From an uncultured Planctomycetia bacterium (lineage in GTDB: Bacteria; 4484-113; JAGGVC01), in the NCBI GenBank assembly GCA_964388445.1, contig CAYMAI010000001.1, positions 336,215-400,214 of the forward strand: 64,000 bases of DNA, written 5' to 3'. Numbering within the stretch: the first letter of the stretch is position 1; the number at the start of each line of letters is the position of its first letter. The translations under genes were made by a program, and so were the position numbers. The notes beneath the pieces were generated by a model that saw only the letters and a program-made list of their open reading frames with translations, made no database searches and was not told where the DNA came from. Shown here piece after piece: positions 24,386 through 62,799 of this stretch.

Positions 24386-24481
24386 CGGCGCATGGTAACA
24401 CGCGGCAACGCGCCCCGGCGGGATTATCCGCCGCCGGAGCGCCGAATGTTGCGCATCAGCCCTTCAAACTAGCGCGGCAAG

Positions 24482-25045
24482 TCAAGATTCTTCGGCGGGA
24501 AGAACGGTGATAGGTATTTCAAGCATTTTTGAGTGTGGAGGAGAAGGCTCTATCGGTTGAAATGGACTTATGACATGGCCTTCGTAGGTAACGCTAAATC
24601 CGCCCCATTCTAATGATTCAGCAGTAGTAATGCGGAGCAAGTAATTCCCGGCATTCAAAAGGGGAAGTGTGAATGATGCGGATTCGAGAACAGGGTTGTA
24701 GTCCTGTGTGAAGTACTTAGTAATCCAAGTACTTAAAGTTATGACTCCGCCCTCATTTAGTACAAATGCATTGTCGGTATCCGGCCTCAGGTATTTTAAA
24801 ACATCCGGGTTGAGCCTAGTAGAGAAATGCAAGACAATTTCTGCGTGTTCCCCTTCTTTAACTTGTTCAGGAACATCTACTGCAGTTATGTAGGGGAGAT
24901 AGGCAGTTATCTGGCTCTTTGGATTCGGCGGGGCTATGGCGGTCATCTTACATCCTGCAACCATTATTATTTGCATTAAGGCAGTTGCAAATAACAGCCC
25001 AAATGCGACTACAAATAACTTGCGAAACTCATGAAAGATTTTCAT
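24482..25045 (-). CDS. Lipoprotein of paralogous PITVLPxEES family (member L1)
   Basis: Lipobox (IIMVAGC), conserved YLPY and TAESLEWGG motifs, C-terminal PITVLPAEES; preceded by leader repeat copy. Confidence 0.6.
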   Translation of the reverse strand: MKIFHEFRKLFVVAFGLLFATALMQIIMVAGCKMTAIAPPNPKSQITAYLPYITAVDVPEQVKEGEHAEIVLHFSTRLNPDVLKYLRPDTDNAFVLNEGGVITLSTWITKYFTQDYNPVLESASFTLPLLNAGNYLLRITTAESLEWGGFSVTYEGHVISPFQPIEPSPPHSKMLEIPITVLPAEES

Positions 25046-25487
25046 ATTTCAACTCCTACCATGCGTTAATTGCTGAATAGTAATTTAAGAAACCCGCGAT
25101 GTCGCGCCGCGCAACGCGCATCATCGCCGCATTCGAGCGAATCATTAATAGACTTTCTCTACAAAAACTCTCTCCGTCCACATTCCCGCTCCGAACTTCC
25201 GGAATCCGATTTCCAAATTCGCAAACCCGCTTGTTTCCCAATTCGCAATCCAGTTTGGCGTTTTCCACGCTCCGGGTTTAAACAACGCTCCCGGTTTAAT
25301 AAGAAACACAATCTCCCGCTTCGCTTTGCATCTTGAATACACCTCAGAGTGCGCCACCGCATCCTTGGCGCACAACGGGATTTTACCCCGATTTGCAGGT
25401 TTTAAACCGGCATCAGGCTCGCGTAAATAATCACAATCCCAAGCCGCGGGAAAGCGGTGAAAATGGTGTATAAATCTGTATAATGCG
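25046..25487 (-). repeat. Conserved ~400 bp leader/promoter element, copy 1 of 3
   Basis: Near-identical to 33783..34228 and 56913..57352 from about 25106 (divergent nearer the L1 start); contains inverted repeat GTGCGCCA-N9-TGGCGCAC (25349..25373) and two pairs of direct repeats. Confidence 0.8.
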
Positions 25488-30477: not shown

Positions 30478-30673
30478 AGGGTTGACCCGCCGCAATTATA
30501 TCACGCGACGCCGCCACAACCGGAGCGCGATTGAAGGCCGATTCGGCTCCAGAACTTGGCCGGTTCGGCTGGCCGGAATACGCTTAAGGTATCAAGCGCC
30601 AAGAGCGCCCCGGCGGGAGAGGCCGCCGGAGCGCCGTAAACTGGGCGTCAACCCATCAATCTAGCGCGACGAG

Positions 30674-31279
30674 TCAGGAACCTTCGGGGGGGAGGACGGT
30701 GATGGGTATCAGTAAGTAAGTTGCATGTTCGTGATTTGGTCTAAGGCTAGAGCCTTGCCAATCTCCATTAATCGCTGGAATTCCATTGCCGTATTCATAC
30801 GAAACACCCAATCCGCCCCATTCGGCGGAATCCGCTGTCGGAATTTCCAGCATATACTCACCTTTCGCTAGTCCATCGATATAATACGAAACTGATGTCT
30901 TAGAAGGTTTCACAATGCCCACAACCCGAACCCAAGTGGTTAATCTGATAATCCCGGCGGAATTAGGTTTCAATGGCAAGGCACTTTCAAGGAAATACTC
31001 CTTAAGCGCGTCCGGAAATCTGTCTGCCGAAACTTCCAAATCAACCTTAAAAGCCTCTCCTTCGCGAATCTTATCTGGAATGGTTACCTCCTTGACGTAA
31101 GGTAAATATTCCGCAACACCAAAACCGCCGGGGGTGGCATAGCCGATTTTGCAGGAACTTGAAAAGCAAAAAACAGCAAATGCAAGGGTAAACACGGTAA
31201 TGGTCAAATGCCCGCAAGCGTCGGAGAAATTAGGTTTGTTGTTCATGTTCATTGCCTGTTTGTTACGTAAGTTAAACAT
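30674..31279 (-). CDS. Lipoprotein of PITVLPxEES family (member L2)
   Basis: Lipobox (FCFSSSC), EYLPYV, TADSAEWGG, C-terminal PITVLPPEGS; start may be an internal Met (31252 or 31246). Confidence 0.6.
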   Translation of the reverse strand: MFNLRNKQAMNMNNKPNFSDACGHLTITVFTLAFAVFCFSSSCKIGYATPGGFGVAEYLPYVKEVTIPDKIREGEAFKVDLEVSADRFPDALKEYFLESALPLKPNSAGIIRLTTWVRVVGIVKPSKTSVSYYIDGLAKGEYMLEIPTADSAEWGGLGVSYEYGNGIPAINGDWQGSSLRPNHEHATYLLIPITVLPPEGS

Positions 31280-31285
31280 TTCAGG

Positions 31286-31795
31286 TCAGGATTCTTCGGC
31301 GGGAAGAACGGTGATGGGGAATTCCAAAGTTGTCTCGTGCTCGTGTTTAGGCCTATCCCTACCATAAAATCCATAATACTTAATTTCGGTGCCCCCCCAT
31401 TCCTCTGAATCCGCAGTTGCAATTACAAGTATGTATGTACCTGCGCTTAGTGGCGGAATTGAAACCGAAATTGAAGATCGCAAAGGGGAACTTGCGAAAT
31501 CGAAAGGATCATATTGCATCCATGTGCTTACTAGAATCTTGTCTCCCGGCATATAAGTGTAATTTGCAGGATCGCTCTCGCCCGCCATAAAACCCCGAAG
31601 TGCATTGGGATTGCGCAATGCTGAGACTTGCAGTATGACATCAAATTCTTCATCTTCAAAAAGATATTCAGGGACAATTGCAGACTCCACAAATGGAAGA
31701 TATTCCCTATTCCAATTGGGAACAGGGCCTGCAATTCCGCGGTTACTGCACGAAGTCAATGTCAAGCTCATCAGACACAGCAAGACAAATCTCAT
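31286..31795 (-). CDS. Lipoprotein of PITVLPxEES family (member L3)
   Basis: Start set at internal ATG 31795 (MRFVLLCLMSLTLTSC, SD-like AAGGTGG upstream) rather than track start 31897, which would overlap the peptidase; EYLPFV, TADSEEWGG, PITVLPAEES. Confidence 0.6.
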   Translation of the reverse strand: MRFVLLCLMSLTLTSCSNRGIAGPVPNWNREYLPFVESAIVPEYLFEDEEFDVILQVSALRNPNALRGFMAGESDPANYTYMPGDKILVSTWMQYDPFDFASSPLRSSISVSIPPLSAGTYILVIATADSEEWGGTEIKYYGFYGRDRPKHEHETTLEFPITVLPAEES

Positions 31796-31853
31796 GTACA
31801 GCTTACCACCTTGTTGTTGAGCGTGTGGGTGTATGTTTCTCATTCCTAACCTC

Positions 31854-33782
31854 CTACCATCCATTGATTGCAGCGTAGTAATTTGCAATGCCAGCAATTG
31901 GCACTGCTCCGGTTTGATCCAAGTCCCGTCTGCGAGTATTTACTATTCTTGCTTGAACTTGGATATAGGTTGAGTCTGGGCGAATTCGGTACAAATGAAA
32001 TGCAAGCGATGAAACTTGTGGTGCACATGCGGATGTCCCATTAAAGTGATCGTAGCCGGAAAAAGGTATTGTTGATAAATGGCGACTTCCAGACATGAAA
32101 TCCATAAAGTCATATATTCCCGATACCGGATAGGTTGTGTAGTTATCGCTGAAATAGTTAGAACCGTTGCCGATTTCTCCCGTGTCCCACTGAGTTCCGT
32201 AAAAGTTTGTCCTAAGCCCACTCACGCCTAAAACGTTGTCATGCGCCGCGGGATATGTGCGCAAGTGCTTGCGCTCGTTTCCAGCGCTTGCAACATATAA
32301 CCGATCGTTTCGCCTTAGATCAAGCGATATTTCATCCTTCATGGTCTTCGGAGGATTCCAGTCCATGTACTTCCATCCTCCACCAAAACTCATATTGACT
32401 ACTCTTACCTTCTCTCTCCAATTGAGATGAGGCTGTCGTGGATCGTGATGAAATTCGAACCTTAGCGCTCTTATTGCTTTTAGCATCGAACCTGCAGTAA
32501 ACTTTTCCAAATATCCATCGACAATATTGTCAACCTTTAATCGTATGGGGAGAATTTTTGCATTTGGAGCCATGCTTGCAGTGCCGATGGAGTTGTTCGT
32601 AGCAGCCGAAATAATTCCCGCAACATTTGTACCATGTTTTGCCAGATTTCCGGTAACAGGATCGATAAATGTAGGCTCTCCCTTACCTTTGCCTACTTCA
32701 TAGGACTTATCCCAGCAGTCGACACCGATGTTGCTAATATGCCAATCTCGAACTCCTCCACCTTGAGTTGGACCGTTCAGATCTGGATGGTTTCTATAAA
32801 CCCCCGAATCAATGACCGCAACCATTTGGTCCGAAAAATTAGCGCTTCCTTGACCCCCTTCGGGCCCATAAGGTATTTGAGGAATCTGGTTCACGAAAAA
32901 GTGATTGATATAAAGCGCTTTGTTGCTGGTGTAATGCGTGTCGTTCGGAGGAGGATAATCTGCGGTATATTCGTCCATTGTATTTGGCTGAGCCTGTTCA
33001 ATCTTCTGATGAGTGCTGAAATATGCGTAAGCGAGGTCGAATGTAGAAAATCTTTCCTCAGTGAATCTAAACTGAAACCATGCGATTGAATTTCCCTCTT
33101 CTGGTTCTTCCGGCCCTTCAAACCAAGAAAAGATTACGTAAAGATCGTTAGCGGCAATGAAATTGCTAATTTCCTGCTCCGTCACTTCCTGCTTGAATAA
33201 CACAATCATCTCGTCTTCAGCGATTTCGAATTCCCCGCCAGCGGGTGCAGTCCAAATAATTGTCTCCGGTGATTCTTCATTATAGTTTGTAGTAAAAAAG
33301 TCCTGCAGAGGTTCGTTAGTTACCAGAATGTTTCCGTTGGGCAGTTGATACGTGCCTGTAAACGGATCGGGACTTGAGAGGCGGTTAACGGTAACAAATT
33401 GCCCCGGAGAAATCTCGACAACGCTTTGGGAGATTACAGGACCCCAGGGATTAATCTGGTCCAAATAAGGATCCAACAGCGATTGCGGATCACCGATAGG
33501 ACCTGCTATCTGCCTTTCCCAGCCTTCAGGCGGGTCGCCGCCGCTATCGAATGGCCCTTCGCCTCCGCCACCGGGATCGTTAGCAATTGCGGTTTGCCGA
33601 GTTTTCTCTGGGTCTTTGGAATCGGCACCATCCTGCGATTGCTGCGAATCGATTCTTGCCCCTGCGGTCATCTTGGCGTCCCTGTCACAAGACATCAGCG
33701 CAAAGGCGCACATCATTACAAGGGCGAGTAAAACTACCCCCCCCCCCCAGCCGGGGGCAAACGAAAACTTGGACTTTTTCAT
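31854..33782 (-). CDS. S8-family (subtilisin-like) serine peptidase, lipoprotein
   Basis: Catalytic triad motifs AVIDSGV, HGTNVAGII, GTSACAP; lipobox ALMSC; first ~40 aa and upstream leader nucleotide-identical to the peptidase at 55161..56912; 12-nt G run in signal-peptide codons. Confidence 0.85.
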   Translation of the reverse strand: MKKSKFSFAPGWGGGVVLLALVMMCAFALMSCDRDAKMTAGARIDSQQSQDGADSKDPEKTRQTAIANDPGGGGEGPFDSGGDPPEGWERQIAGPIGDPQSLLDPYLDQINPWGPVISQSVVEISPGQFVTVNRLSSPDPFTGTYQLPNGNILVTNEPLQDFFTTNYNEESPETIIWTAPAGGEFEIAEDEMIVLFKQEVTEQEISNFIAANDLYVIFSWFEGPEEPEEGNSIAWFQFRFTEERFSTFDLAYAYFSTHQKIEQAQPNTMDEYTADYPPPNDTHYTSNKALYINHFFVNQIPQIPYGPEGGQGSANFSDQMVAVIDSGVYRNHPDLNGPTQGGGVRDWHISNIGVDCWDKSYEVGKGKGEPTFIDPVTGNLAKHGTNVAGIISAATNNSIGTASMAPNAKILPIRLKVDNIVDGYLEKFTAGSMLKAIRALRFEFHHDPRQPHLNWREKVRVVNMSFGGGWKYMDWNPPKTMKDEISLDLRRNDRLYVASAGNERKHLRTYPAAHDNVLGVSGLRTNFYGTQWDTGEIGNGSNYFSDNYTTYPVSGIYDFMDFMSGSRHLSTIPFSGYDHFNGTSACAPQVSSLAFHLYRIRPDSTYIQVQARIVNTRRRDLDQTGAVPIAGIANYYAAINGW

Positions 33783-34228
33783 GTCCTACTCCTTTGGTTG
33801 AATTTTGAAATATCGCGTACGCTTGGGCGGGCGTTCTTACGCCGCGCCGCGCGCATCATCGCCGCTTTCGAGCGAATCCTTAATAGACCTTCTCTACCAA
33901 AACTCTCTCCGTCCACATTCCCGCTCCGAACTTCCGGAATCCGATTTCCAAATTCGCAAACCCGCTTGTTTCCCAATTCGCAATCCAGTTTGGCGTTTTC
34001 CACGCTCCGGGTTTAAACAACGCTCCCGGTTTAATAAGAAACACAATCTCCCGCTTCGCTTTGCATCTTGAATACACCTCAGAGTGCGCCACCGCATCCT
34101 TGGCGCACAACGGGATTTTACCCCGATTTGCAGGTTTTAAACCGGCATCAGGCTCGCGTAAATAATCACAATCCCAAGCCGCGGGAAAGCGGAGAAGCTT
34201 TTGTATAAATTTGTATAACCGGTCCGCG
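33783..34228 (-). repeat. Conserved leader/promoter element, copy 2 of 3
   Basis: Identical or near-identical to 56913..57352 and 25106..25487; identity continues into the peptidase coding region to about 33660. Confidence 0.85.
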
Positions 34229-51327: not shown

Positions 51328-52086
51328 TTACGGAAGCGCTTTCGGGATTTTTTTAAGCACGCGCAGCCTGAAACTAATGGAAAATATTTCAAACAGCATT
51401 TTCGTTGCGTCCCGCAGAAAATTCACCTTGCTTTCCGGACTGTCCACCCAAATGACCGGCACTTCTTTGTATTTGAAACCCAAAAGGCTTGCAAGCGCAA
51501 GAAGTTCGAGGTCGAAACTCCATCCCCAGACGCGCTGGCGTGGAAAAATCTCGTCCGCGGCTTTCGACGAAAACAGCTTGAAGCCGCACTGCGTGTCGCG
51601 CACGCCCGGAATAATCAGGGCGCGGGTTATCGAGCGCATCACGTTTCCCGCAAGCCGCCGGTGAATTGGCTGGCGGACTCGCACGTCGCTGTCCGGCAGG
51701 CTTCGCGACCCGAAAACGACGTCCGCCCCTTGTTCCGCCCAAAACAGCAGCTTTTTCACCTCGCCAATCGGCGTGGATAAATCCACGTCCGAAAACAGAC
51801 GATATTTGCCGCGAGACTCCTGCATACCGCGGTTGACCGCCGCGCCTTTCCCTTTTCTGGATTCCGGCGTCGAAACGAGCCTTAATCTAATCTCCGGGTT
51901 CGCCGCCGCGAAGTCTTTCACGATTTCCGCGGTCGCGTCGCTCGAATGGTCGTCAACCACGATAATTTCGACTGGCCGCGTGCTTGCCGACGCGAAATCG
52001 AAAAGCGCGGCAAGGCATGCCGGCATGCGCTTTTCTTCGTTGAACGCCGGCACTACGATTGACAAAAATATTCCACTTTCAGCCAA
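51328..52086 (-). CDS. GT2-family glycosyltransferase (polyprenyl-phosphate sugar synthase-like, DPM1/GtrB/ArnC-type)
   Basis: GT-A N-terminus LSIVVPAFNEEKRMPACL...EIIVVDDHSSDATAEIV with DxD-type acidic motifs. Confidence 0.85.
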   Translation of the reverse strand: MAESGIFLSIVVPAFNEEKRMPACLAALFDFASASTRPVEIIVVDDHSSDATAEIVKDFAAANPEIRLRLVSTPESRKGKGAAVNRGMQESRGKYRLFSDVDLSTPIGEVKKLLFWAEQGADVVFGSRSLPDSDVRVRQPIHRRLAGNVMRSITRALIIPGVRDTQCGFKLFSSKAADEIFPRQRVWGWSFDLELLALASLLGFKYKEVPVIWVDSPESKVNFLRDATKMLFEIFSISFRLRVLKKIPKALP

Positions 52087-52134
52087 GGCACCGGATTTTA
52101 CTTTATATTCCGCCCGCTGGGATAGAAATTCGGG

Positions 52135-53922
52135 TTAATTACGCAAATCGTATATCCAAATCGCGCCGTTCGCGATTACCTCGTCCGGCCGCGAATTCAG
52201 GAACGCGGCGGATAATTCATGCGCACGCGCCGATTGTTCGACGAATAAATTTACGTCGGTTATTTCGGAGTAACCGGTTGCAACCCAAAGACTAACCGCA
52301 TAGACGTTTCCCGGCTTGAAATCTCGGGGTAGGACGTCGTCCGGCGTTACTAGCGTTGCGTTTAGACCGTACACCGCCGGGTTGTCGCGCAAATTTCCGT
52401 AATACAACTTCACTCCTGCCACGCCGTTTTCGTCCATCCATTTTTTCAGCGCTGGCAGGCCCTGTCCCCAGTCCAAATTCGAGTCGCTAAGCAGATATGC
52501 CCGTCTTGCCGGCGATCCAGCGAATTCATTCATGTAACTTATCGGATATGGCATTTGACTAAGGCTCGACGTCGCCGCAAATAAAACCAAGGCCGCGCAA
52601 ACCGCCGTTCCGTACTTTTTCAACGCTGGAATGCGATCGAACCCCGTTAATGCGCCGGACGCGTAAACGAAAAGCAACGGATAAACGAACAGCAGGTGTC
52701 TTACTCCGAAATTCATACCGCTGAATATCGCGATGGCCGAGTAAATGAAAACGGGGATGAGCAGCGCAGTCTCGAAATCGCGGACCTTTGCCGGTTTGGC
52801 GAACGTAAGTGCCGCGCTCGACAAAATTAACAGCATAATCGCGATCGGAGTTTTGAAAAAAAATACCGCGGGAAAATAATGCCACCATCCGCGCAGGCTG
52901 AATTCGCCGAACAAATAAGCCGGATGTCCGAGTGATATGTGATGGAATACCTGATATATGCCCAGCATTGTTTCCTTTTGCACGGGTACTGCGGTAAGCG
53001 CTCCGGCAATCGCATCCTCGATAGGCGTGTCCCCAGGTATCGCGGAATCAATCCTTTCCTCGAATCGCGGCGAATTTTCGGGAGTGATTTTTTTCATCGT
53101 GAACGCGTAAGCCAAGGGAATAGCAAGCGCCAAAGCGGCGGCAACAAAAGCCAAGTAAAAAAGTATAAAACCGCAAAGAGCTCCGCATGGCGATTTGCCC
53201 GGTAACTTGATGCGAAAAATTCGAGTGGGAATTTTGAATGCTCCGCGCTTGAAAAGCCATGCGAAAATTGCAATAGAACAAAGCGGCACGGCAAGCCCGC
53301 TGAATTTTGTCAGCGCCGCTGCCGCGGTGAAAAACATCAGAAGCGAAAAGCTAAGCATCGAACCGGTTTTTGCGAAACGAATCGTGAAATACACGGACGC
53401 CAAAACCGCCGCTGCGATTGCCGCGTCGCTGTTCGCAAGCGCGGCGTGCGCGATAAGGTTCGGCTCGATGGCGAAAATCGCAATCGCAAGAGTGCCGGCC
53501 TTTGTGCCGTAAATTTCGCGCGCCGACAGGAACGCGAATACACTTGAAAGCGAGACCAAAATCAGCAGGGGCAGCCTCGCAGCGAACAGAATCCAAAGTT
53601 GATTTTTTTCGTTTACGCGCCAAAATTCCTCGGAAAACGCGATTTGATCCTTTGCGTTCCACGCGCCGCCGCCAATCGGCGATTTAACGCCCGCTGCCGC
53701 GAGCGGCATACCGATTAGCCATTTTGTGAGCGGAGGATGCTCGGTGTTCATTCTGAAGTCCCGAGCGCCATAATATGAAACTGCGGCGGGAATGTGCAAT
53801 GCCTCGTCGTTGGTAAGCCCGTTTTTGTGGGCAACCCAAGCGCCTTGAGCAAAAAATATCGCAATTAACAGCGCGATGGGTAGCCCCTGAATTCCGGTTG
53901 AAAAAAGGCGCTTCACGCACAA
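52135..53922 (-). CDS. GT-C membrane glycosyltransferase (PMT/ArnT-like, COG1807-type), paralog 1
   Basis: 595 aa polytopic protein; first extracytoplasmic loop with acidic DE motif (GLTNDEALHI), large C-terminal soluble domain; about 50-60% identical in aligned N-terminal blocks to 57463..59307. Confidence 0.8.
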   Translation of the reverse strand: MCVKRLFSTGIQGLPIALLIAIFFAQGAWVAHKNGLTNDEALHIPAAVSYYGARDFRMNTEHPPLTKWLIGMPLAAAGVKSPIGGGAWNAKDQIAFSEEFWRVNEKNQLWILFAARLPLLILVSLSSVFAFLSAREIYGTKAGTLAIAIFAIEPNLIAHAALANSDAAIAAAVLASVYFTIRFAKTGSMLSFSLLMFFTAAAALTKFSGLAVPLCSIAIFAWLFKRGAFKIPTRIFRIKLPGKSPCGALCGFILFYLAFVAAALALAIPLAYAFTMKKITPENSPRFEERIDSAIPGDTPIEDAIAGALTAVPVQKETMLGIYQVFHHISLGHPAYLFGEFSLRGWWHYFPAVFFFKTPIAIMLLILSSAALTFAKPAKVRDFETALLIPVFIYSAIAIFSGMNFGVRHLLFVYPLLFVYASGALTGFDRIPALKKYGTAVCAALVLFAATSSLSQMPYPISYMNEFAGSPARRAYLLSDSNLDWGQGLPALKKWMDENGVAGVKLYYGNLRDNPAVYGLNATLVTPDDVLPRDFKPGNVYAVSLWVATGYSEITDVNLFVEQSARAHELSAAFLNSRPDEVIANGAIWIYDLRN

Positions 53923-53980
53923 AGTTTACATCAAATTCGAAATTCGCGGCTAACAGGCGTGGATAAACCTCATTGCGCGC

Positions 53981-54075
53981 TAAGGCGCGAATATCCGAAT
54001 CGCGCCGTTCGCGATTACGCCGTCCGGCCGGCGCCCCGCGATGACCGCAAATCTCGCTTCGCGACCCCCGATTGG
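53981..54075 (-). other. Fragment homologous to the 3' end of the GT-C glycosyltransferase genes (gene remnant)
   Basis: About 90 nt near-identical to the last codons and stop region of 57463..59307 and 52135..53922 (CGCGAATATCC(G/A)AATCGCGCCGTTCGCGATTAC...), between lipoprotein L4 and GT-C paralog 1. Confidence 0.5.
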
Positions 54076-54157
54076 AACACGCGGCAACGCGCCCCGGCGG
54101 GAGAGGCCGCCGGAGTGCTGTAAATTGCGCATCAGCCCTTCAATTTAGCGTGACAGG

Positions 54158-54607
54158 TCAGGATTCTTCGGAGGGAAGAACGGTGATGGGGTATTGAAAT
54201 TGCCTGCTTCTCTCTTCGCCGTCCAAGTACACTACCTTTAGCTTGGGAAGATAGCTACCCGGCGACAAGTATGTTTTTTGTAATTGGTGCGAGTACAAGT
54301 GGTCTTCATATTTGCCTGAAATCGCGATTTCAACGTAACCGTTACCGTCGTCGAAGTCGATTTGAATGGATTTTACAAAGCCGGCGATGGATTGGTTGTT
54401 GCTAATCCAAAGGTCAAATTCGACCGAAAAAGGAGCGGTACCTTCATTCGATGTCAGCCTCTGAAACAAAACCCCTCTTGAAGGCCATAAGCCGTATTTA
54501 ATGCCGCTTCGGCCGTTGCAGCTGCTTAGCAAGCTGACTGCCGAAAAATCGGCGAGCATTATCGCCATCAGAAAAAAGCCTGAACAAACTTGATTTATGA
54601 ACTTCAT
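54158..54607 (-). CDS. Lipoprotein of PITVLPxEES family (divergent member L4)
   Basis: Lipobox (LLSSC), C-terminal YPITVLPSEES; 3' flank shares the conserved hairpin-containing sequence with L1 and L2. Confidence 0.5.
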   Translation of the reverse strand: MKFINQVCSGFFLMAIMLADFSAVSLLSSCNGRSGIKYGLWPSRGVLFQRLTSNEGTAPFSVEFDLWISNNQSIAGFVKSIQIDFDDGNGYVEIAISGKYEDHLYSHQLQKTYLSPGSYLPKLKVVYLDGEERSRQFQYPITVLPSEES

Positions 54608-54644
54608 CTAATCCACCTACCTTAATGATTTTCGCTTGGCTGCG

Positions 54645-55151
54645 CTACTCGACTGACACAACCGGATACGAATGGAATTGGATGCTGGTTTCGAATATTT
54701 CCCGGCCGTAGTAAACGCGCGAAATGATGTTGTAAACGCCGGGCGTCTCGAATGTGTAGGTAAGCAGCAGCGATTCGTCGAAATTCCTCGACCCGTAAAG
54801 TCCATCATATTTTGGCGATTTCAGGAATTTCAGCGCATCTTCTGTAACGTCAACTACCTCATCGCCGAAATTTACTTCAATCTTGTCCGGGTAAACGCGG
54901 CTTCGGTCAATCTCGCGATGAACTGGGCGCATCCAAACCCAATACTTGATCGAAAATGGGGCAGCGCCAGAGCTTTCCCCTTCTACGAAAACAATCGTAG
55001 ATACAGGTGGGTAAAAGTAGTATCCATCTTCCGGATACCCCCAGTCGTAACCGGGAAATTTGGACTTGTAATTTGTACTGGAGCAACCGGCAAAGATCGC
55101 AGTCAAAACAAGCACAACAAGCGCGGTGGAAAAAGTAAGTATCTTTATCAT
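54645..55151 (-). CDS. Small lipoprotein, distant relative of L4 (member L5)
   Basis: Lipobox (IFAGC); shares APFS...W block with L4; C-terminus YPVVSVE instead of PITVLPxEES; 10 bp downstream of peptidase 2. Confidence 0.5.
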   Translation of the reverse strand: MIKILTFSTALVVLVLTAIFAGCSSTNYKSKFPGYDWGYPEDGYYFYPPVSTIVFVEGESSGAAPFSIKYWVWMRPVHREIDRSRVYPDKIEVNFGDEVVDVTEDALKFLKSPKYDGLYGSRNFDESLLLTYTFETPGVYNIISRVYYGREIFETSIQFHSYPVVSVE

Positions 55152-55160
55152 ATCAACCTC

Positions 55161-56912
55161 CTAGGGACGTAATGTCTCGTACGCATTCAACTTCCAAGCG
55201 CCAAGATTGGGGTCGTAAGTGGCGCGCTGAAGAATCCGGTTCTTAGCGAGTTGTGGCGCTGAGTATTGGGGTCTCGTTACCAGCATCCCTGCTACAGCGC
55301 TCACATGTGGAGTGGCAGCGGACGTGCCGCTAAAAGCTGCGGTCAAGCCTTCCGGGTCACTTCGATAGCCAAGGTCGTACAAACCATTTGGGCTCTTTCC
55401 AACCATATCGACTGTCCAAATGAGCTGGTTTCCGGATCCTTCTCCACCTGGAGCAAATACGCTTCCCAATTTGCTGTATCCTGTCATTTGCCCAGATATC
55501 TTGTACGCACCTACAGACAATACTCTAGGATGTCTTGCAGGCCAATCTTCGGGCCATCTGGGTTCAGCGACTTCTTTGCGATTTCCTGCCGCGGCTACAA
55601 AAAGCATGTGTTGGGTGAGCTTGTCGAGAAAGCGCATATTCGTCTCACCTAAAGACGGTCCGCCGAAGCTACAATTTACAACCTCAATATTAGTATAAGG
55701 TACTTGCGGAACGAAAGGATAATACTCCCAATCCGCGCGGTAAATCCTCTTGACGCATCCTATAGCGAGGAATGAATTGGCTAAAGTAGAAGTTGAAAAA
55801 CCGCTATTGTGATACATTGCGATCGGCAGAATACGAGGACAACGAACAATTCCGCAAATATCCTGCTCGTCGTCTAACTGGTAGCCGGGGTCGTTATTGA
55901 TTGCGGATCCGATTATTCCAGCGACACAGGTACCATGACCCGCACTGCGAGCTGATACTGCACTAGCGTTTAACACACTTGGACTTGGCTGACCATGCCC
56001 TTGACCGAATGTTGTCCACCATTTGCTATCGTACGTGTTAACGCCCCATGAAAGAAATGCGGAACCTAGATCTTTATTGGCTTGCCTTCTCTGAACTCCA
56101 GTATCCAATATCGCAATTATGCCGGAATCGTAATAGTAATTCTTCCAAGCGTTCTGAATTCTAATGCTCTGTCCACTCGCATCGCGTATCGCCCATTGAA
56201 ACGGAAACAGATCGTCATCGGGCTCTGCGTCTATTGGCCATGCGCAGGTCGAAGCCAACGCATCCGGATCGACGGAATCGATTAAGTCGGGATATTCGTC
56301 CGGCCAATATTCGACTGCATACTCAATGCTTGTTCCTTGCGGCAACAGCGCGCCTATGCACTTTACCGCGTTCCACTCCACAAAGACTGCCAATTCTTCG
56401 GCAAGCACAAAATCGGCAACATCTTGATCCTCCGATACGGTGCTGTATGATGTTTGATGATAGTACTCATCCTCTGGGGATATTTCCTCATCGAAGTAGT
56501 TCGGGTCAACATCGGGATATTCCGGCGGGTTCTTGAACGCGATTATTACTCTTCCGTCGATTATAGGGTATGTCTCCTGGGTACGCGGATCGGTAAAGTC
56601 GCGAATGTCCCATTCGTCTTCTTCGTCGAATCCGCCGCCGCTTCCGCCCGGGCCGCCGTCCATCGGCTCTTCTCCGCCTCCGCCGAAATCTCCCGCGGAC
56701 GAGTTTCCGCGACTTTTGGTTGCGGATTGGCTTTCCGTAATGGCATCCTGGCCGGCTGCCGGTGTTGCTGGAATCAAACCGGTCGCATCCCCTGCGGTCA
56801 TCTTGGCGTCCCTGTCACAAGACATCAGCGCAAAGGCGCACATCATTACAAGGGCGAGTAAAACTACCCCCCCCCCCCAGCCGGGGGCAAACGAAAACTT
56901 GGACTTTTTCAT
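55161..56912 (-). CDS. S8-family (subtilisin-like) serine peptidase, lipoprotein, paralog 2
   Basis: Triad motifs IAILDTGV, HGTCVAGII, GTSAATPHVSAVAGML; N-terminal 40 aa and 5' leader identical to the peptidase at 31854..33782; same 12-nt G run. Confidence 0.85.
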   Translation of the reverse strand: MKKSKFSFAPGWGGGVVLLALVMMCAFALMSCDRDAKMTAGDATGLIPATPAAGQDAITESQSATKSRGNSSAGDFGGGGEEPMDGGPGGSGGGFDEEDEWDIRDFTDPRTQETYPIIDGRVIIAFKNPPEYPDVDPNYFDEEISPEDEYYHQTSYSTVSEDQDVADFVLAEELAVFVEWNAVKCIGALLPQGTSIEYAVEYWPDEYPDLIDSVDPDALASTCAWPIDAEPDDDLFPFQWAIRDASGQSIRIQNAWKNYYYDSGIIAILDTGVQRRQANKDLGSAFLSWGVNTYDSKWWTTFGQGHGQPSPSVLNASAVSARSAGHGTCVAGIIGSAINNDPGYQLDDEQDICGIVRCPRILPIAMYHNSGFSTSTLANSFLAIGCVKRIYRADWEYYPFVPQVPYTNIEVVNCSFGGPSLGETNMRFLDKLTQHMLFVAAAGNRKEVAEPRWPEDWPARHPRVLSVGAYKISGQMTGYSKLGSVFAPGGEGSGNQLIWTVDMVGKSPNGLYDLGYRSDPEGLTAAFSGTSAATPHVSAVAGMLVTRPQYSAPQLAKNRILQRATYDPNLGAWKLNAYETLRP

Positions 56913-57352
56913 GTCCTACTCCTTTGGTTGAATTTTGAAATATCGCGTACGCTTGGGCGGGCGTTCTTACGCCGCGCCGCGCGCATCATCGCCGCTTTCG
57001 AGCGAATCCTTAATAGACCTTCTCTACCAAAACTCTCTCCGTCCACATTCCCGCTCCGAACTTCCGGAATCCGATTTCCAAATTCGCAAACCCGCTTGTT
57101 TCCCAATTCGCAATCCAGTTTGGCGTTTTCCACGCTCCGGGTTTAAACAACGCTCCCGGTTTAATAAGAAACACAATCTCCCGCTTCGCTTTGCATCTTG
57201 AATACACCTAAGGCAGCGCCACCGCATCCTTGGCGCACAACGGAATTTTACCCCGATTTACAGGTTTTAAACCGGCTTCAGGCTCGCGTAAATAATCACA
57301 ATCCCAAGCCGCTGGAAATCAGTGAAAATTGTGTATAAATCTGTATAACGCG
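56913..57352 (-). repeat. Conserved leader/promoter element, copy 3 of 3
   Basis: Matches 33783..34228 and 25106..25487; identity extends into the peptidase coding region to about 56790. Confidence 0.85.
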
Positions 57353-57462
57353 GGAATGACGCCGCGAGAAATGCCTATTATCGCGAGGGGCAAGCACTTA
57401 ATTAGAATGCAGCCTCGCGGCTCGCGCATATAGGCATCGAGCTAACGTGTGCGAATGGCTCG

Positions 57463-59307
57463 CTACGGCGCGAATATCCAAATCGCGCCGTTCGCGATTA
57501 CCTCGTCCGGCCGGCGGCTTACTATGTCCGCATATCTCGCTTCCGCGGCGCGCCAGTCCTCTTCGTTATCGAAAAATCCGTACGTCAGATTCATGTCCGC
57601 GACCGTCCACATGCTTATCGCGTACACTTCGCCCTCGATGAATTCGTCCGGGTTCAGCTCTAGCGGGTCTTTGAGAATATAGTTAAAGTCATATAGCGCG
57701 GGATTATCGCTAAGGTTTCGATAAAACAGCCGAACGGTTTTAATGCCGTGCTTTTGCGTCCACTTTTCCAGCGCGGGCAAGCCCTGTCCCCAGTCGAGGT
57801 TCGAATCGCTCAAAAGCCACGCGCGCCGCTGATGGCCGCCCGCGAATTCGTTCATATAGCTTATGTAATACGGCGCCTCGTGAAGCGGCGAGAAAATCAT
57901 GAACGCCGCCAGTGCGCCTATCGCCGTTTGCAGCGCTAGGTTTTTAACGTTCAATTCTTTTCGCTTGACCGGTTTTCCGCCGACTTTGTATTCGTCCGGG
58001 TCGAACCGCGGCTTCGTCCTGAACCCGACGGCGAGTATTCCCGACGCGTAAACGAATAACAGCGGGAATATAAACAGCAAATGCCGCACGCCGAGATTGA
58101 TGCTGCCGAGAATCGCGGTAGCGGCATAAATCAATATCGGAATGACTAGGACGGATTCGCTTATCCAAATTTCACGGTCTTTGCGGTAAGCGAAAACAAC
58201 GCTCAAAAGTATTAGCGCCATAAGCGCAATCGGAGTTTTGAAAAAGAATACGACGGGAAAGTAATACCACCATCCGTGAAGCGCATATTTTCCGAGCAGA
58301 AAGGAAGGATGCCCCACGTCGTTATGCTGAAACACTTGATATAAGCCCATTATGTATTCTTTGGGCAGCGGTATTTTTTGAGCGAAGTCGATTAGCTGCT
58401 CGCGAAGCGGAAAACCGTCGGGAATTCGTACGTCGCAAATGTATTCGAAATTCGGCGAGTTTTCGGGAGTGATTACCGTCAATTTGAAACCGTAACTCAA
58501 AAGCACTGCGAAGAGACCCGCGAGGAAAAACCAAAGAGACATAATAAGTATGAACGCCGCGCCGCGCGCGCCGCGCGATTTAAACGGCAGTTTGATGCCG
58601 AGAAGCGTGCGAGGTATTTGATATTGCGTGGGATAGTTTCTTAAAAGGTATATGTATAAAAATATCAATAGCGGAAGCACAAATAGCCCGCTGTATTTAA
58701 TCAAAATCGCGATAGACGAAAAGACGAGAAGGAAAACGAAATCGATGTGTTTGAGAGATTTTAAAAACTTCAGCGCAAAGTATATACAGGCGGCAACGGT
58801 CAATCCGAGAGGCGCGTCGCTGTTCGCAAGCGACGCATGAGCGATGAAATTCGGCTCGAAAGCGAATAGGAACATCGCGAAAAGCCCGGCCTTTTCGCCG
58901 TAAATCTCGCGCCCTAAAAGGAAAATGAACGCGCCCATCAGCGCGCAAAAAAGAAGGTTCGGAATGCGGGCGAGGAATAAAAACTTGCGCTGGTTAGACG
59001 AGTTCTCCTTCCAAAAATCGCGTGCGTATTCGATTTGCTTTTTTGCGTCCCAATACGGCGAATCCGCTGGAAGTCGCGCGCCCGCGGCGGCAAGCGGCAG
59101 CCCCGCCAGCCACTTCGTAAAAGTGGGATGCTCCGTGTTCATACGAAAATCGCCCGCCTTCCAATATGTCACACCGGACGCGATGTGAACGAGTTCGTCC
59201 GTGGTCATCCCGTTGCTTTTCGCAACCCAAAGACCCTGAGCGAAAAAGATAAGGGCGAAGAGCGCAACCGCTCCCCAAACCAACGGTCCGCTTTTGATGG
59301 TTTCCAC
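57463..59307 (-). CDS. GT-C membrane glycosyltransferase (PMT/ArnT-like), paralog 2
   Basis: 614 aa; same architecture and motifs as 52135..53922 (MTTDELVHI loop, conserved C-terminus RPDEVIANGAIWI). Confidence 0.8.
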   Translation of the reverse strand: METIKSGPLVWGAVALFALIFFAQGLWVAKSNGMTTDELVHIASGVTYWKAGDFRMNTEHPTFTKWLAGLPLAAAGARLPADSPYWDAKKQIEYARDFWKENSSNQRKFLFLARIPNLLFCALMGAFIFLLGREIYGEKAGLFAMFLFAFEPNFIAHASLANSDAPLGLTVAACIYFALKFLKSLKHIDFVFLLVFSSIAILIKYSGLFVLPLLIFLYIYLLRNYPTQYQIPRTLLGIKLPFKSRGARGAAFILIMSLWFFLAGLFAVLLSYGFKLTVITPENSPNFEYICDVRIPDGFPLREQLIDFAQKIPLPKEYIMGLYQVFQHNDVGHPSFLLGKYALHGWWYYFPVVFFFKTPIALMALILLSVVFAYRKDREIWISESVLVIPILIYAATAILGSINLGVRHLLFIFPLLFVYASGILAVGFRTKPRFDPDEYKVGGKPVKRKELNVKNLALQTAIGALAAFMIFSPLHEAPYYISYMNEFAGGHQRRAWLLSDSNLDWGQGLPALEKWTQKHGIKTVRLFYRNLSDNPALYDFNYILKDPLELNPDEFIEGEVYAISMWTVADMNLTYGFFDNEEDWRAAEARYADIVSRRPDEVIANGAIWIFAP

Positions 59308-59535: not shown

Positions 59536-60951
59536 TTACGGTTTTACATCGCCGTCTTCGAGCACCGCGCCGCCGTCGAGAAGCATTTTCCTGACGGACG
59601 GATATAAATCGTCCACGCCGCCGATTCCGCCTACTTTTGCGATTACCGCGGCTGTACATCCGGCGGCATGTCCGACCGCCATGCAGGTCGGCATCACGCG
59701 AGTTGATGCAAACGCCTCGTGCGTCACTCCGATGTGCCGTCCCGCCATCACTAGATTATTCGCTTCTTCGACGAGCAGCGAGCGAAGCGGTATGTCGTAA
59801 TGTCCGCGCTCGCCGAGCGATTCGGTTTTCAGTTCCGCGCCGCTTGCCGAATGAATGTCTATCGGAAACGCGCCCAACGCGACGGCATCGCCGAAACGCG
59901 CGCCGCCGACCACGTCTTCGCGCGTCATCACATATTTGGCAATAGTGCGATAGCTTTCCCTGACGCCCAAATAATCCGCTTTTCTCGATATATAGCAGTC
60001 TTTGAATCCCGCCACGTGGTCGCGGAAAAAGTCGAGCAGGAATATTATCTGGCGCATTCCTTCTTCCCGGAGCGCTTCGTCCGTTCCGAATTCATGCGGG
60101 ATTCTCGTCGTATTCACCATCACTTCGCCGTAAGCGGGAGTCTCGAAAAACAAGAGCCTGTCGCGCGGCACTTCCCATTCCCCACGTTCCTTCGCCGCCT
60201 GGACAAGCGAGAAAAACCCGCTAACTCCCACGTAATCGCCGTACGCGGCGCTTTTGTCGGCGCTAAGCACGAAGTCGTCCGGATGATCTTTTATGTACGC
60301 CCGTATTTTCGCCATTTCCACGCCCGCAAGCGCGAACAGCCACGACATCGGCTGTCTTTGTCCGGACATTTCGGTTTCCGCGCCGGAAAGCCTTGCAAGT
60401 TTCGCGCTCCCCGTCGCGTCGACGTACGCTGCGGCGGAAAGATTCCATTCCTTTACGATGGGGAGTTCGAGTTTCTGCCAGTGTCCGAAAGGAATTCCGC
60501 TGGGCATTTTCGACTGGTCGAGCGTGCCCATCGTAACTTGCTCCAATTTTTCGCCCGTGTTTTCAGCGCCGGTAACGCAGGTGTTCAAAAGCAGCGTCAC
60601 GCCCTCTTCGTAAAGCCATTCGAGCATGACGTGGCGGGAAATCCTGTCGTCCATCGGAGTGAGCGTAGAGGCGAATCCTATCGGGTCAGGCACGTGGCCC
60701 AAAGTTCCGCCGTGCAATTTCATTCTGTCCACATATTCCTGCGCGATTCCGCGTATTACCTGGCCTTTGCGGGAATGGAAAGTTTGATATGGCTGTACGA
60801 GGGCCTGATTAGCCATTCCGCCGGGATAGGAACACGCTTCCGCGAGCACGACGTCGCAGCCCGCGCGCCTTGCCGCGACTGCGGCGACAACGCCGGCCAC
60901 GCCGCCGCCGGCAACCAAAACGTCCGTCTTTTCAGGAAAATCGCCGGTCAT
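59536..60951 (-). CDS. FAD-dependent oxidoreductase
   Basis: N-terminal FAD dinucleotide-binding motif (DVLVAGGGVAGVVAAVAARRAGCDVVLAE); 471 aa. Confidence 0.8.
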   Translation of the reverse strand: MTGDFPEKTDVLVAGGGVAGVVAAVAARRAGCDVVLAEACSYPGGMANQALVQPYQTFHSRKGQVIRGIAQEYVDRMKLHGGTLGHVPDPIGFASTLTPMDDRISRHVMLEWLYEEGVTLLLNTCVTGAENTGEKLEQVTMGTLDQSKMPSGIPFGHWQKLELPIVKEWNLSAAAYVDATGSAKLARLSGAETEMSGQRQPMSWLFALAGVEMAKIRAYIKDHPDDFVLSADKSAAYGDYVGVSGFFSLVQAAKERGEWEVPRDRLLFFETPAYGEVMVNTTRIPHEFGTDEALREEGMRQIIFLLDFFRDHVAGFKDCYISRKADYLGVRESYRTIAKYVMTREDVVGGARFGDAVALGAFPIDIHSASGAELKTESLGERGHYDIPLRSLLVEEANNLVMAGRHIGVTHEAFASTRVMPTCMAVGHAAGCTAAVIAKVGGIGGVDDLYPSVRKMLLDGGAVLEDGDVKP

Positions 60952-61020: not shown

Positions 61021-62799
61021 TTACGGCTCGATACGCTCTTCTTCTTGATACAGCTCTTCCATATACTTGTCGTCCGCATATACGCGCACGTCAACTTCGA
61101 ACAACCTGTTCCACGGGAAAGTTATCTCCGGCTCGATCGTATTCGGCGCTTTGATGCCGCGGCCGCGGTAAATTGCACGGTGCTTGGTGTCGTAGCTCGA
61201 TTTCATCGGTTTTCTCAAGTCCAAACAGCCTTTCTCCACGAGTTCGATAGTGTACAGGTCGAAGTTCCAGGGGTCTCCGCCGTTTGCGGTAACAATTTGC
61301 CAGAATTTTTGCCGGACGATAATCGGAAACCACCTGTCCGATAAAAGCGACTCGAATTTGAAGCGCTCGGCGGCCCACACCGCCGCGGTAGTCGTTCTTT
61401 CGGCGGGGTCGTTCGCAATCCGGTATCCTCTGCAGACGATTTGCGCCAGCGCTTTTCCGAAAGTGTTGCCCGCGGTGTTCCAGCTTGAATATCCGCAAAG
61501 GTAATTTCCGTTGCCCTGCGCGAACGCCTCGTCAAGCGCCGGATCGCCGCCGTTCGCCCACGCGATGTCCGCGACGTATACGTCAACCGTATTCGCCAAT
61601 AAAAGCGGGCCGAGAAACGGTATGGGATTGTTAACGTGCTGCGATATGGGACAGGGCTTGCCGTCCTTCATATGGTCGCCTTGCTCTCGCTCGAAATTGT
61701 TTATTATCAACAGCGGCACTTTGCGCTTGATGATGTCTTCGTCGGCGCCGCCGAGAACGATTTGCGGGTCGTTCGACCACGTTCCGATGCCGGGGTCAAG
61801 AGGGGAAAGCCGAAGGTGTTCCAGGAATTTGGCGAGGTTTTGTCCGGACGTGTAACACTCGAACTTCGCAATTCGCGCCGCCGAATCGGGATACGACCAC
61901 CAAATGCCGACCGGCAAACGGCCTTCGATTCCGTCGCGCAAATGGCGCGCCAGCATTACCATTCCCTGCTCGTCGCAGCCGTTCACGACGGATATTTTCC
62001 TCGCCAAGTCGGTCGAAACCGAGTTCATAAGTTCGTCAACTTCGTCAAGCTGAGGGCCGGTTTCGGAGCCGTCCTCGACCGATATGCACCAAGAGGTCGC
62101 CATCGGCAAAAGCGAGCCGAGGAGTTCCAAATGGTCTTCTTGATTGCGCTTTCTGGCGCTCAGATATTCCGTGTATGCGACGTCCGCAAGCTCCTTAAAC
62201 GCCTTTTCCTTTTCGATTTCGTCCGCGGATTTTTCTGGCTGGCCTTCACCTCCTGCGGTTTCGGGAATTTCGCCGGAGCCCTGTCCCCTTTTGAGGATTT
62301 CATTATAAAGATTAAGCTCGGAAGACTTGAGAAGGGTGGTTCCGATGCGCGGAACGGTTTTGAAGCAATGCAGCCTGCATCCCGGCCTCGACCTTAAAAA
62401 TATCCCGATGAATTCGGCGATTTGTTCAGGCGATTTTTCGCGCACGTCGGCGGTTCGCGATTGAACGAGACCGCCGTAAAGCAGCGCGTCGATGGAAACG
62501 AGCAGCCCTTCCAGTTGGATGGGAAGCCCGCTTAGCCAGTCGAAAAGCGCCTGCGCGTCGCCGGCTTTTTCGCGCCAGCCGAGGAATTCCAGCGGCGGCA
62601 CCATCAGCCGCACGCCGGCGACGTCGGCAAGCCGCAGCGGATATAGCCAGTTGCAAGGCCTGCTGTCGAGCGGAATAAGCGCGATAAGCGGCGCGAGCGT
62701 GTCGGTGAAGATTGCCTCTTCCATCGGGTTGGACAGAGTGTCTCCCGTAAATTCCGCCACGCCCAGTTCGGTATCGACCGGTGAAGTCACGTTTCCCAT
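61021..62799 (-). CDS. Conserved hypothetical protein
   Basis: 592 aa soluble protein, coherent sequence without low-complexity; no catalytic motif recognised. Long antisense ORFs judged spurious. Confidence 0.5.
   Translation of the reverse strand: MGNVTSPVDTELGVAEFTGDTLSNPMEEAIFTDTLAPLIALIPLDSRPCNWLYPLRLADVAGVRLMVPPLEFLGWREKAGDAQALFDWLSGLPIQLEGLLVSIDALLYGGLVQSRTADVREKSPEQIAEFIGIFLRSRPGCRLHCFKTVPRIGTTLLKSSELNLYNEILKRGQGSGEIPETAGGEGQPEKSADEIEKEKAFKELADVAYTEYLSARKRNQEDHLELLGSLLPMATSWCISVEDGSETGPQLDEVDELMNSVSTDLARKISVVNGCDEQGMVMLARHLRDGIEGRLPVGIWWSYPDSAARIAKFECYTSGQNLAKFLEHLRLSPLDPGIGTWSNDPQIVLGGADEDIIKRKVPLLIINNFEREQGDHMKDGKPCPISQHVNNPIPFLGPLLLANTVDVYVADIAWANGGDPALDEAFAQGNGNYLCGYSSWNTAGNTFGKALAQIVCRGYRIANDPAERTTTAAVWAAERFKFESLLSDRWFPIIVRQKFWQIVTANGGDPWNFDLYTIELVEKGCLDLRKPMKSSYDTKHRAIYRGRGIKAPNTIEPEITFPWNRLFEVDVRVYADDKYMEELYQEEERIEP

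Follow-up and report, generated by a model that had tools for sequence, protein, structure and literature searches.

The locus lies on the minus strand of a 64-kb window (the whole stretch of DNA that was analysed, 64,000 nucleotides, from an uncultured Planctomycetia bacterium) and carries the following genes, given in 5' to 3' order of that strand:

61021–62799, minus strand: gene for a DUF4127 protein, the first in this order
59536–60951, minus strand: gene for an FAD oxidoreductase, between the DUF4127 gene and P2
57463–59307, minus strand: P2, a GT-C paralog of 614 aa with Pfam PMT_2 and PMT matches
54076–57352, minus strand: module C, ~3.3 kb, made up of a ~440-nt leader, an S8 peptidase gene, two lipoprotein genes and a tail, and recognised by homology to other modules
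55161–56912, minus strand: gene for the S8 peptidase, first gene of module C
54645–55151, minus strand: gene for a 168-aa lipoprotein, second gene of module C
54158–54607, minus strand: L4, gene for a 149-aa lipoprotein, third gene of module C
52135–53916, minus strand: P1, a GT-C paralog with a PMT_2 match, starting with GTG at 53916
51328–52053, minus strand: gene for a GT2 glycosyltransferase, immediately 3' of P1; in relatives it accompanies the GT-C gene as a conserved partner

P2 exceeds the Pfam gathering score for both PMT_2 (51.1 bits) and PMT (33.3 bits), and P1 matches PMT_2 with 39.8 bits (cut-off 26.1). By this domain content P1 and P2 are GT-C, family 39 (PMT-like) glycosyltransferases; the two proteins are 46% identical, with 55% identity in the aligned DNA. 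The product of the neighbouring GT2 gene presumably resembles a polyprenyl-phosphate sugar synthase. Inspection of the sequence revealed lipobox-like signal peptides in all three module C proteins (LMSC, FAGC and LSSC).

Between the stop of L4 (54158) and the GTG start of P1 (53916) there is a gap of 241 nt, and it is here, as a preliminary description of this DNA had reported, that an orphan fragment of a GT-C gene is found (hereafter R'). The features that bear on its origin are the following:

57455–57547, minus strand: R, the functional 3' end of P2 and, by alignment, the partner repeat of R'
57353–57454, minus strand: unique spacer of 102 nt separating the module leader from the P2 3' repeat
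54076–54157, minus strand: tail of module C with a GC hairpin, recognised by homology to other module tails
54064–54075, minus strand: junction spacer, about 12 nt long, that separates R' from the module tail
53972–54063, minus strand: R', the end of a P2-type GT-C gene comprising its final 27 codons, the stop and 8 nt of 3' flank, delimited by alignment to P2
53988–54030, minus strand: core common to R', P2 and P1, matching the P1 copy at 39 of 43 positions (91%) and the P2 copy at 40 of 43
53998–54016, no strand assigned: perfect palindrome AATCGCG-N5-CGCGATT within the core, present in the R', P2 and P1 copies
53980–53982, minus strand: TAG stop kept in R', in register with the P2 stop by translation and codon comparison
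53917–53971, minus strand: unique stretch of 55 nt between R' and the P1 start
52149–52191, minus strand: core copy at the 3' end of P1, 42 of 43 positions identical to the P2 copy (57471–57513)

The ungapped match of 53972–54060 to 57455–57543 comprises 76 of 89 positions (85%), and a single gap lengthens it to 54063 and 57547. In a search of the 64-kb window this match has a BLAST E value of 3.9e-23, and its local alignment score of 114 stands against a maximum of 27 among 200 shuffles; at the protein level the identity is 77% over 26 amino acids (tblastn E 5e-9). Alignment against both GT-C 3' ends thus places the similarity far above chance level. Chance or GC-rich composition is excluded as its source by the shuffle scores, the BLAST E value and the count of a 28-mer from the core, which has three matches at up to three mismatches in the 64-kb window where 0.00 are expected. 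Translated from the minus strand, R' reads EARFAVIAGRRPDGVIANGAIRIFAP followed by the stop, as compared to EARYADIVSRRPDEVIANGAIWIFAP followed by the stop in P2.

The preliminary description had placed the fragment at 53981–54075 and regarded it as a reproduction of both GT-C ends. The repeat is real and present there, but its true extent is 53972–54063 and its likeness to P1 is limited to the 43-nt core (39 of 43 positions, 53988–54030 versus 52149–52191). Because the P1 match spans only this core, R' is to be read as a copy of the P2 end and not equally of both genes. The non-core part of R' aligns with P2 alone, and R' ends in FAP before the stop, as do P2 and the orthologues P0002 and P0003 of other organisms, whereas P1 ends in YDLRN. 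Judged from these alignments, R' is derived from a P2-type gene and not from P1.

R' has neither a start nor a gene body, and its homology to P2 ends at codon −27. Gapped local alignment detected no significant homology in the flanks of the 92-nt fragment (40% and 77% of shuffles scored at least as high as observed), and a protein-level search with eight family members found nothing else resembling GT-C from the stop of P2 to the start of P1 (53917–57462). A longer degraded pseudogene is thus excluded, the homology being confined to the 92 nt and no GT-C remnant lying elsewhere between P2 and P1.

Eight codons differ between R' and P2, six nonsynonymously and two synonymously, in what is a small sample of 27 codons. 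R' has exchanged for arginine a tryptophan that is kept in seven of the eight family C-termini compared, and it carries a glutamate-to-glycine change inside the PDE motif. As judged by these substitutions, R' is under relaxed protein constraint and decaying. The gene callers applied to three assemblies called no gene at R'. Taken together, the homology to P2, the missing gene body and the relaxed constraint identify R' as a real, sharply bounded pseudogene fragment. The mismatches are unevenly spread, with seven of the 13 clustered within 17 nt in a poorly conserved protein segment, a pattern that weakly favours divergence while both copies still belonged to functional genes, as a foreign allele or a paralog would, over decay of identical copies. 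At the 13 mismatched positions (53974–54050 versus 57457–57533) nine are G or C in the orphan, and nine are A or T in the genic copy (seven of them A); R' appears to be drifting toward higher GC, or the genic copy to be held AT-richer.

An assembly artefact is excluded as the source of this arrangement, since three further assemblies (JAANMV, JAANMU and Logan) agree with the window at 100% over the junctions. The orphan is covered at 100% identity by JAANMV010007992.1 (50272–56620), JAANMU010006523.1 (53472–54192) and a Logan contig (47381–54110), and the P2/module junction is covered, again at 100%, by JAANMU010014505.1 (57218–59992). Exact-protein look-ups of L4, P1 and P2 for an arrangement in which P2 is directly followed by P1 returned only window-identical contigs, and among the contigs found there was a single arrangement throughout and no recombinant or deletion variant. 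One of these contigs has a peculiarity of its own: JAANMU010006523.1 (L008, 1–4901) matches the window only over 53472–54192, with P1 broken at codon ~150, and beyond 53472 it carries unrelated housekeeping genes (NusA, an ABC ATPase, an EF-Tu fragment and a DMP19-like gene). It is probably a chimeric assembly; a real rearrangement is possible.

The position of R' relative to module C could be defined precisely, since the module has paralogous copies elsewhere in the window (30605–34219 and 24397–25487) and homology to these two fixes its ends at 57352 and ~54076. Self-comparison of the window showed that the three modules have near-identical ends and divergent bodies. The leader and first 41 S8 codons of module C (56789–57349) are 97.3% identical to 33659–34219, with a 300-nt stretch inside at 100%, and 56970–57352 is 95.3% identical to 25105–25487. 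The tail (54076–54195), which includes the C-terminal PITVLPSEES, the stop and the GC hairpin, is 84% identical to 24397–24518 and 30605–30706. The S8 catalytic domains, in contrast, share only 26% identity among the modules. R' starts at most 12 nt beyond the module tail, and R lies in the same orientation at a distance of 3483 nt; since the limits of the module are fixed independently, R and R' flank the 102-nt spacer plus the module as direct repeats. The spacer (57353–57454) has no homology to the sequence downstream of R'.

Neither of the other two modules has flanking direct repeats (scores of 21 and 19 versus shuffle means of ~19), so target duplication is not a regular property of the module, and a systematic duplication of its target is excluded. 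Foreign composition was likewise discarded as an explanation, with no clear GC signal: GC content is 0.47–0.56 inside the module versus 0.45–0.58 outside.

The ends of the modules have several features in their own right. The three leader copies (56789–57352, 33659–34219 and 25105–25487, all minus strand) contain ~440 nt of non-coding DNA that is 95–100% identical, and in two of them the identity reaches the first 41 codons of the S8 genes, which encode the lipoprotein signal peptide; this suggests recent gene conversion or a common regulatory region. The leader has no Rfam match. No long ORF is uninterrupted in every copy, although a 65-aa ORF at 57010–57207 is. A 24-nt tandem direct repeat at 57075–57122 (TTTCCAAATTCGCAAACCCGCTTG / TTTCCCAATTCGCAATCCAGTTTG), about 165–210 nt upstream of the S8 start, could be a candidate binding site for a direct-repeat-recognising regulator. 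In the tails (54076–54195, 24397–24518, 30605–30706 and 31282–31323) the small lipoproteins end in PITVLP(A/S/P)E(E/G)S, and the roughly 80 nt that come next contain a GC hairpin, CTCCGGCGG-N6-CCGCCGGGG, that has no U-tract. Logan contigs break at 54086 and 54110, on either side of the tail hairpin. If the hairpin after L4 stops transcription, a promoter or 5' UTR of P1 would have to sit in 53917–53971 or in R'.

The 43-nt core, which R' has in common with both GT-C genes, is better conserved between them than the rest of their sequence. Over the terminal residues RPDEVIANGAIWI, P1 and P2 use identical codons at 13 of 13 shared residues, versus the same codon at only 50% of identical residues gene-wide, and this 13-codon run is the longest in the gene (permutation p = 0.016). 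P1 and P2 also have in common the residues VIANGAI, as compared to VVGG(S/C) in orthologues. These features point to gene conversion between the P1 and P2 3' ends inside this genome, and the near-identity of the core in R, R' and the P1 end is most simply explained by short-tract gene conversion. The pattern agrees with the much stronger homogenisation of the module leaders. A second inverted repeat, ACGGCGCGA-N9-TCGCGCCGT (57466–57492, minus strand), spans the last nine sense codons of P2; its 7-bp arms are kept in R' and missing from P1.

Representative genomes in GTDB hold nothing closer than 31% identity, and synteny was therefore assessed on four metagenomic contigs. The GT-C proteins of the best metagenomic relatives are 50–53% identical to P2 and 42–44% to P1. 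Two relative contigs have a single GT-C gene followed, after a gap of 54 nt, directly by GT2 and then by a gene for a 74-aa protein, and a third has one opposite-strand gene between GT-C and GT2. The GT2 proteins of the relatives are 71–72% identical to that of the window, and the synteny can therefore be considered real. Neither the module nor an orphan tail is present at these GT-C/GT2 loci, though the relatives are distant (50–53% GT-C identity), and they are also without P1, with none having more than one GT-C gene at the locus. Since the loci of the relatives are without the module, its position between two GT-C genes would be derived in the window lineage. The sample of one relative also contains, at another locus between uvrD-like and plsY-like genes, a module of three genes (S8, about 160 aa and about 170 aa) whose small proteins end in VLPPE(D/E)AGS, similar to the tail motif of the window.

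GT-C and GT2 form a conserved pair across the relatives (window 51328–53916; L004 10001–12870; L006), of which GT2 is far more conserved (71–72%) than the GT-C genes (43–53%). P1 occupies the syntenic position, yet P2 is closer in sequence to the GT-C genes of the relatives.

These results sustain the earlier suggestions that the fragment is a scar of duplication or recombination and that the peptidase/lipoprotein cassette was inserted or exchanged beside a pre-existing GT-C gene. Support comes from the relaxed constraint on R', its abutting of the module end, the flanking direct repeats, the GT-C to GT2 order of the (distant) relatives, with neither module nor orphan, and the occurrence of the same three-gene module elsewhere in one of their samples.

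We next consider what R' is and how it arose. Our main reading, to which we assign a probability of about 0.75, is that R' is a non-functional rearrangement relic; this figure jointly covers its generation by insertion of the module and by truncation of a further paralog. Nothing in the tests that we applied supports any function of R'. Rfam gave no match at E ≤ 1, the minimum-energy folds of the three core copies differ from one another and are no better than those of shuffles (z −0.3 to −1.3), no sigma-70 promoter consensus was found in the L4/P1 gap, and no terminator-like site in 53923–54157. A structured RNA, a riboswitch and an intrinsic terminator are excluded by the missing Rfam match, the lack of a significant or shared fold and the lack of a terminator pattern. 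A Pfam scan of 55 ORFs across the 64 kb detected no integrase, transposase, recombinase or reverse transcriptase. A mobile element with its own recombinase is thus excluded among the scanned ORFs, and the insert encodes only the S8 peptidase and two lipoproteins.

The origin of R' that we favour, at about even odds, is a single insertion of the module at the 3' end of P2. In this scenario the 3.3-kb S8-peptidase/lipoprotein module, along with the 102-nt spacer, would have integrated into the chromosome where P2 ends and left the last ~92 nt of the gene on both sides, giving the order P2 body and R, spacer and module, R', P1 and GT2. R would still end a working P2, while R', having no gene body, would drift. 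The route may have been a single crossover in a common 3' end or a duplicative insertion, either of which would yield such a geometry, and the 43-nt core would afterwards have been kept near-identical in R, R' and the P1 end by short-tract gene conversion. We infer both the one insertion event behind the two repeats and the type of recombination. Against this scenario stand the lack of an integrase, transposase or recombination gene in the module and in the 64 kb, the lack of flanking repeats around the other two modules, the clustering of the mismatches and the distance of the relatives used for synteny.

A precedent for this geometry is the icd gene of E. coli K-12, where e14 is located at the 3' end, the gene is intact and a diverged C-terminal pseudogene, icdC, lies at the far end of the element (PMC13626634). 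Recombination between icd and icdC would excise e14, leaving a chimeric gene (PMC13626634; Hill, Gray and Brody 1989, as cited in that paper). The window resembles icd/e14/icdC, and likewise phage 21, in having an insert at the 3' end of a coding sequence, an intact gene, a C-terminal relic on the far side and direct repeats, with R and R' flanking 54064–57454. It differs in other respects: e14, a prophage of 15 kb, encodes an integrase of its own and has a defined att core, whereas the insert here comprises 3.3 kb of cellular-type paralogous genes, with no integrase or recombinase in or beside it and no recombinase in the 64 kb, and R and R' are, unlike the repeats of the e14 system, only 85% identical.

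The second form of the relic, which we consider unlikely although it is the best of the alternatives, is that R' is all that survives of a third GT-C paralog (P3), similar to P2 and once situated between module and P1. About 95% of P3, from the module tail as far as codon −27, would have been deleted and only its 3' end spared. Two tandem-oriented GT-C paralogs are already present at the locus, the junction with the module tail is abrupt and no recombinase is needed. The R/R' mismatches, moreover, fall mostly in the poorly conserved segment, the conserved C-terminal motif being largely kept, as would be expected of once-functional copies; this clustering fits either a former P3 or a version of the insertion model in which a foreign allele was brought in. 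However, the P3 explanation requires at least three events (duplication, module insertion and deletion) as compared to one, and no 5' or internal GT-C remnant survives. P3 would also have to be a much younger duplicate than P1, since R' is 85% identical to P2 at the DNA level and P1 only 55%, and no relative has more than one GT-C gene at the locus. Remnants of genes in tandem arrays are likewise short, promoterless 3' fragments beside intact paralogs and under relaxed constraint, but here a discrete module lies between R' and the end of the intact gene, and there is no other piece of a lost gene. The data are compatible both with insertion accompanied by target duplication and with a truncated third paralog.

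It is improbable, in our estimation, that the 43-nt core with its 7-5-7 palindrome is a selected cis element (an operator or promoter, an RNA hairpin or a recombination site) and that R' is kept for the regulation of P1 or for programmed rearrangement. The palindrome is perfect in all three copies with none of the 13 R/R' mismatches inside it, two of the core copies lie 63–72 nt upstream of the next start codon (those of GT2 and P1), and the three direct copies bound two segments, the module and P1; the run of 13 identical terminal codons could be read in the same way. Set against this, the third core copy is 560 nt from the next gene, and the palindrome is missing from the equivalent position in the orthologues L004, L006 and L007, which excludes a family-wide cis element. 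The Rfam, folding, promoter, terminator and recombinase searches described above were all negative, and the identical codons do not require a function, since short-tract gene conversion accounts for them. A 24-mer of the core had no match in 185,579 representative genomes and was found in metagenome contigs at the same three sites only. With three copies in the window and the 24-mer nowhere else in the collections searched, a dispersed repeat of the REP or MITE type is excluded as well.

That the three core copies are active recombination sites at which the module, P1 or both are reversibly deleted and reinserted is more improbable still. Like integron attC and shufflon sfx sites, they are direct-orientation sites with an internal inverted repeat that bound gene-sized segments. 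In contrast to those systems, there are only three copies and an integrase is lacking, the sites coincide with coding 3' ends of paralogs, orthologues do not share the palindrome and there is no sign of mobility. If such sites were active, they would switch the GT-C gene that precedes GT2 between P2, P1 and a chimera of P2 with the P1 tail, amounting to programmed on/off or variant switching of envelope glycosylation in an uncultivated lineage, and the near-identical leaders and tails of the three modules would belong to the same cassette exchange.

Direct-repeat recombination between paralogs yields chimeric genes, as in the cpsG/manB deletions in the LTEE (PMC13626634), and the P2 end, R' and the P1 end are similarly short similar segments of diverged paralogs in direct orientation. 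By this analogy they are substrates for deletion or gene conversion. The difference is that the window contigs show one arrangement, with no recombinant or deletion variant.

There is very little to commend the view that R' makes up the 3' portion of an expressed small ORF, 46 codons from ATG to TAG (MRNLQHSGG...IRIFAP). Upstream of the kept stop the frame stays open for 54 codons and includes the ATG, but the ORF was not called by the gene callers on any of the three assemblies, its 5' half crosses the conserved non-coding tail and GC hairpin common to the other modules, the conserved tryptophan is lost and there is no homologue apart from GT-C tails. Finally, although R' is an imperfect repeat of ~90 nt close to the 3' end of its gene and the P2 copy has adenine at seven of the 13 mismatches, we rejected R and R' as template and variable repeats of a diversity-generating retroelement acting on the GT-C C-terminus, since no reverse transcriptase is encoded in the 64 kb, the other six mismatches are at bases other than adenine, the adenines lie in the copy inside the gene, opposite to the arrangement in such elements, and the target would be a conserved GT-C tail, not a C-type-lectin or Ig-like variable domain.

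Collectively, our results suggest that R' is an ordinary scar of genome rearrangement, a further example of a familiar type of feature that alone raises no new biological question. The appropriate annotation is that of a pseudogene fragment; it should neither be called as a small ORF nor be passed over as anonymous intergenic DNA. The direct repeats predict instability of the locus, with loss of the module or of P1 and formation of chimeric GT-C genes as the outcomes. For the biology of this uncultivated bacterium, R' would serve as a historical marker that places and dates a lineage-specific rearrangement, in which a secreted-protease/lipoprotein operon came to lie between two PMT-like genes, and the locus illustrates how paralogous genes and modules diverge in their bodies but remain near-identical at their ends.
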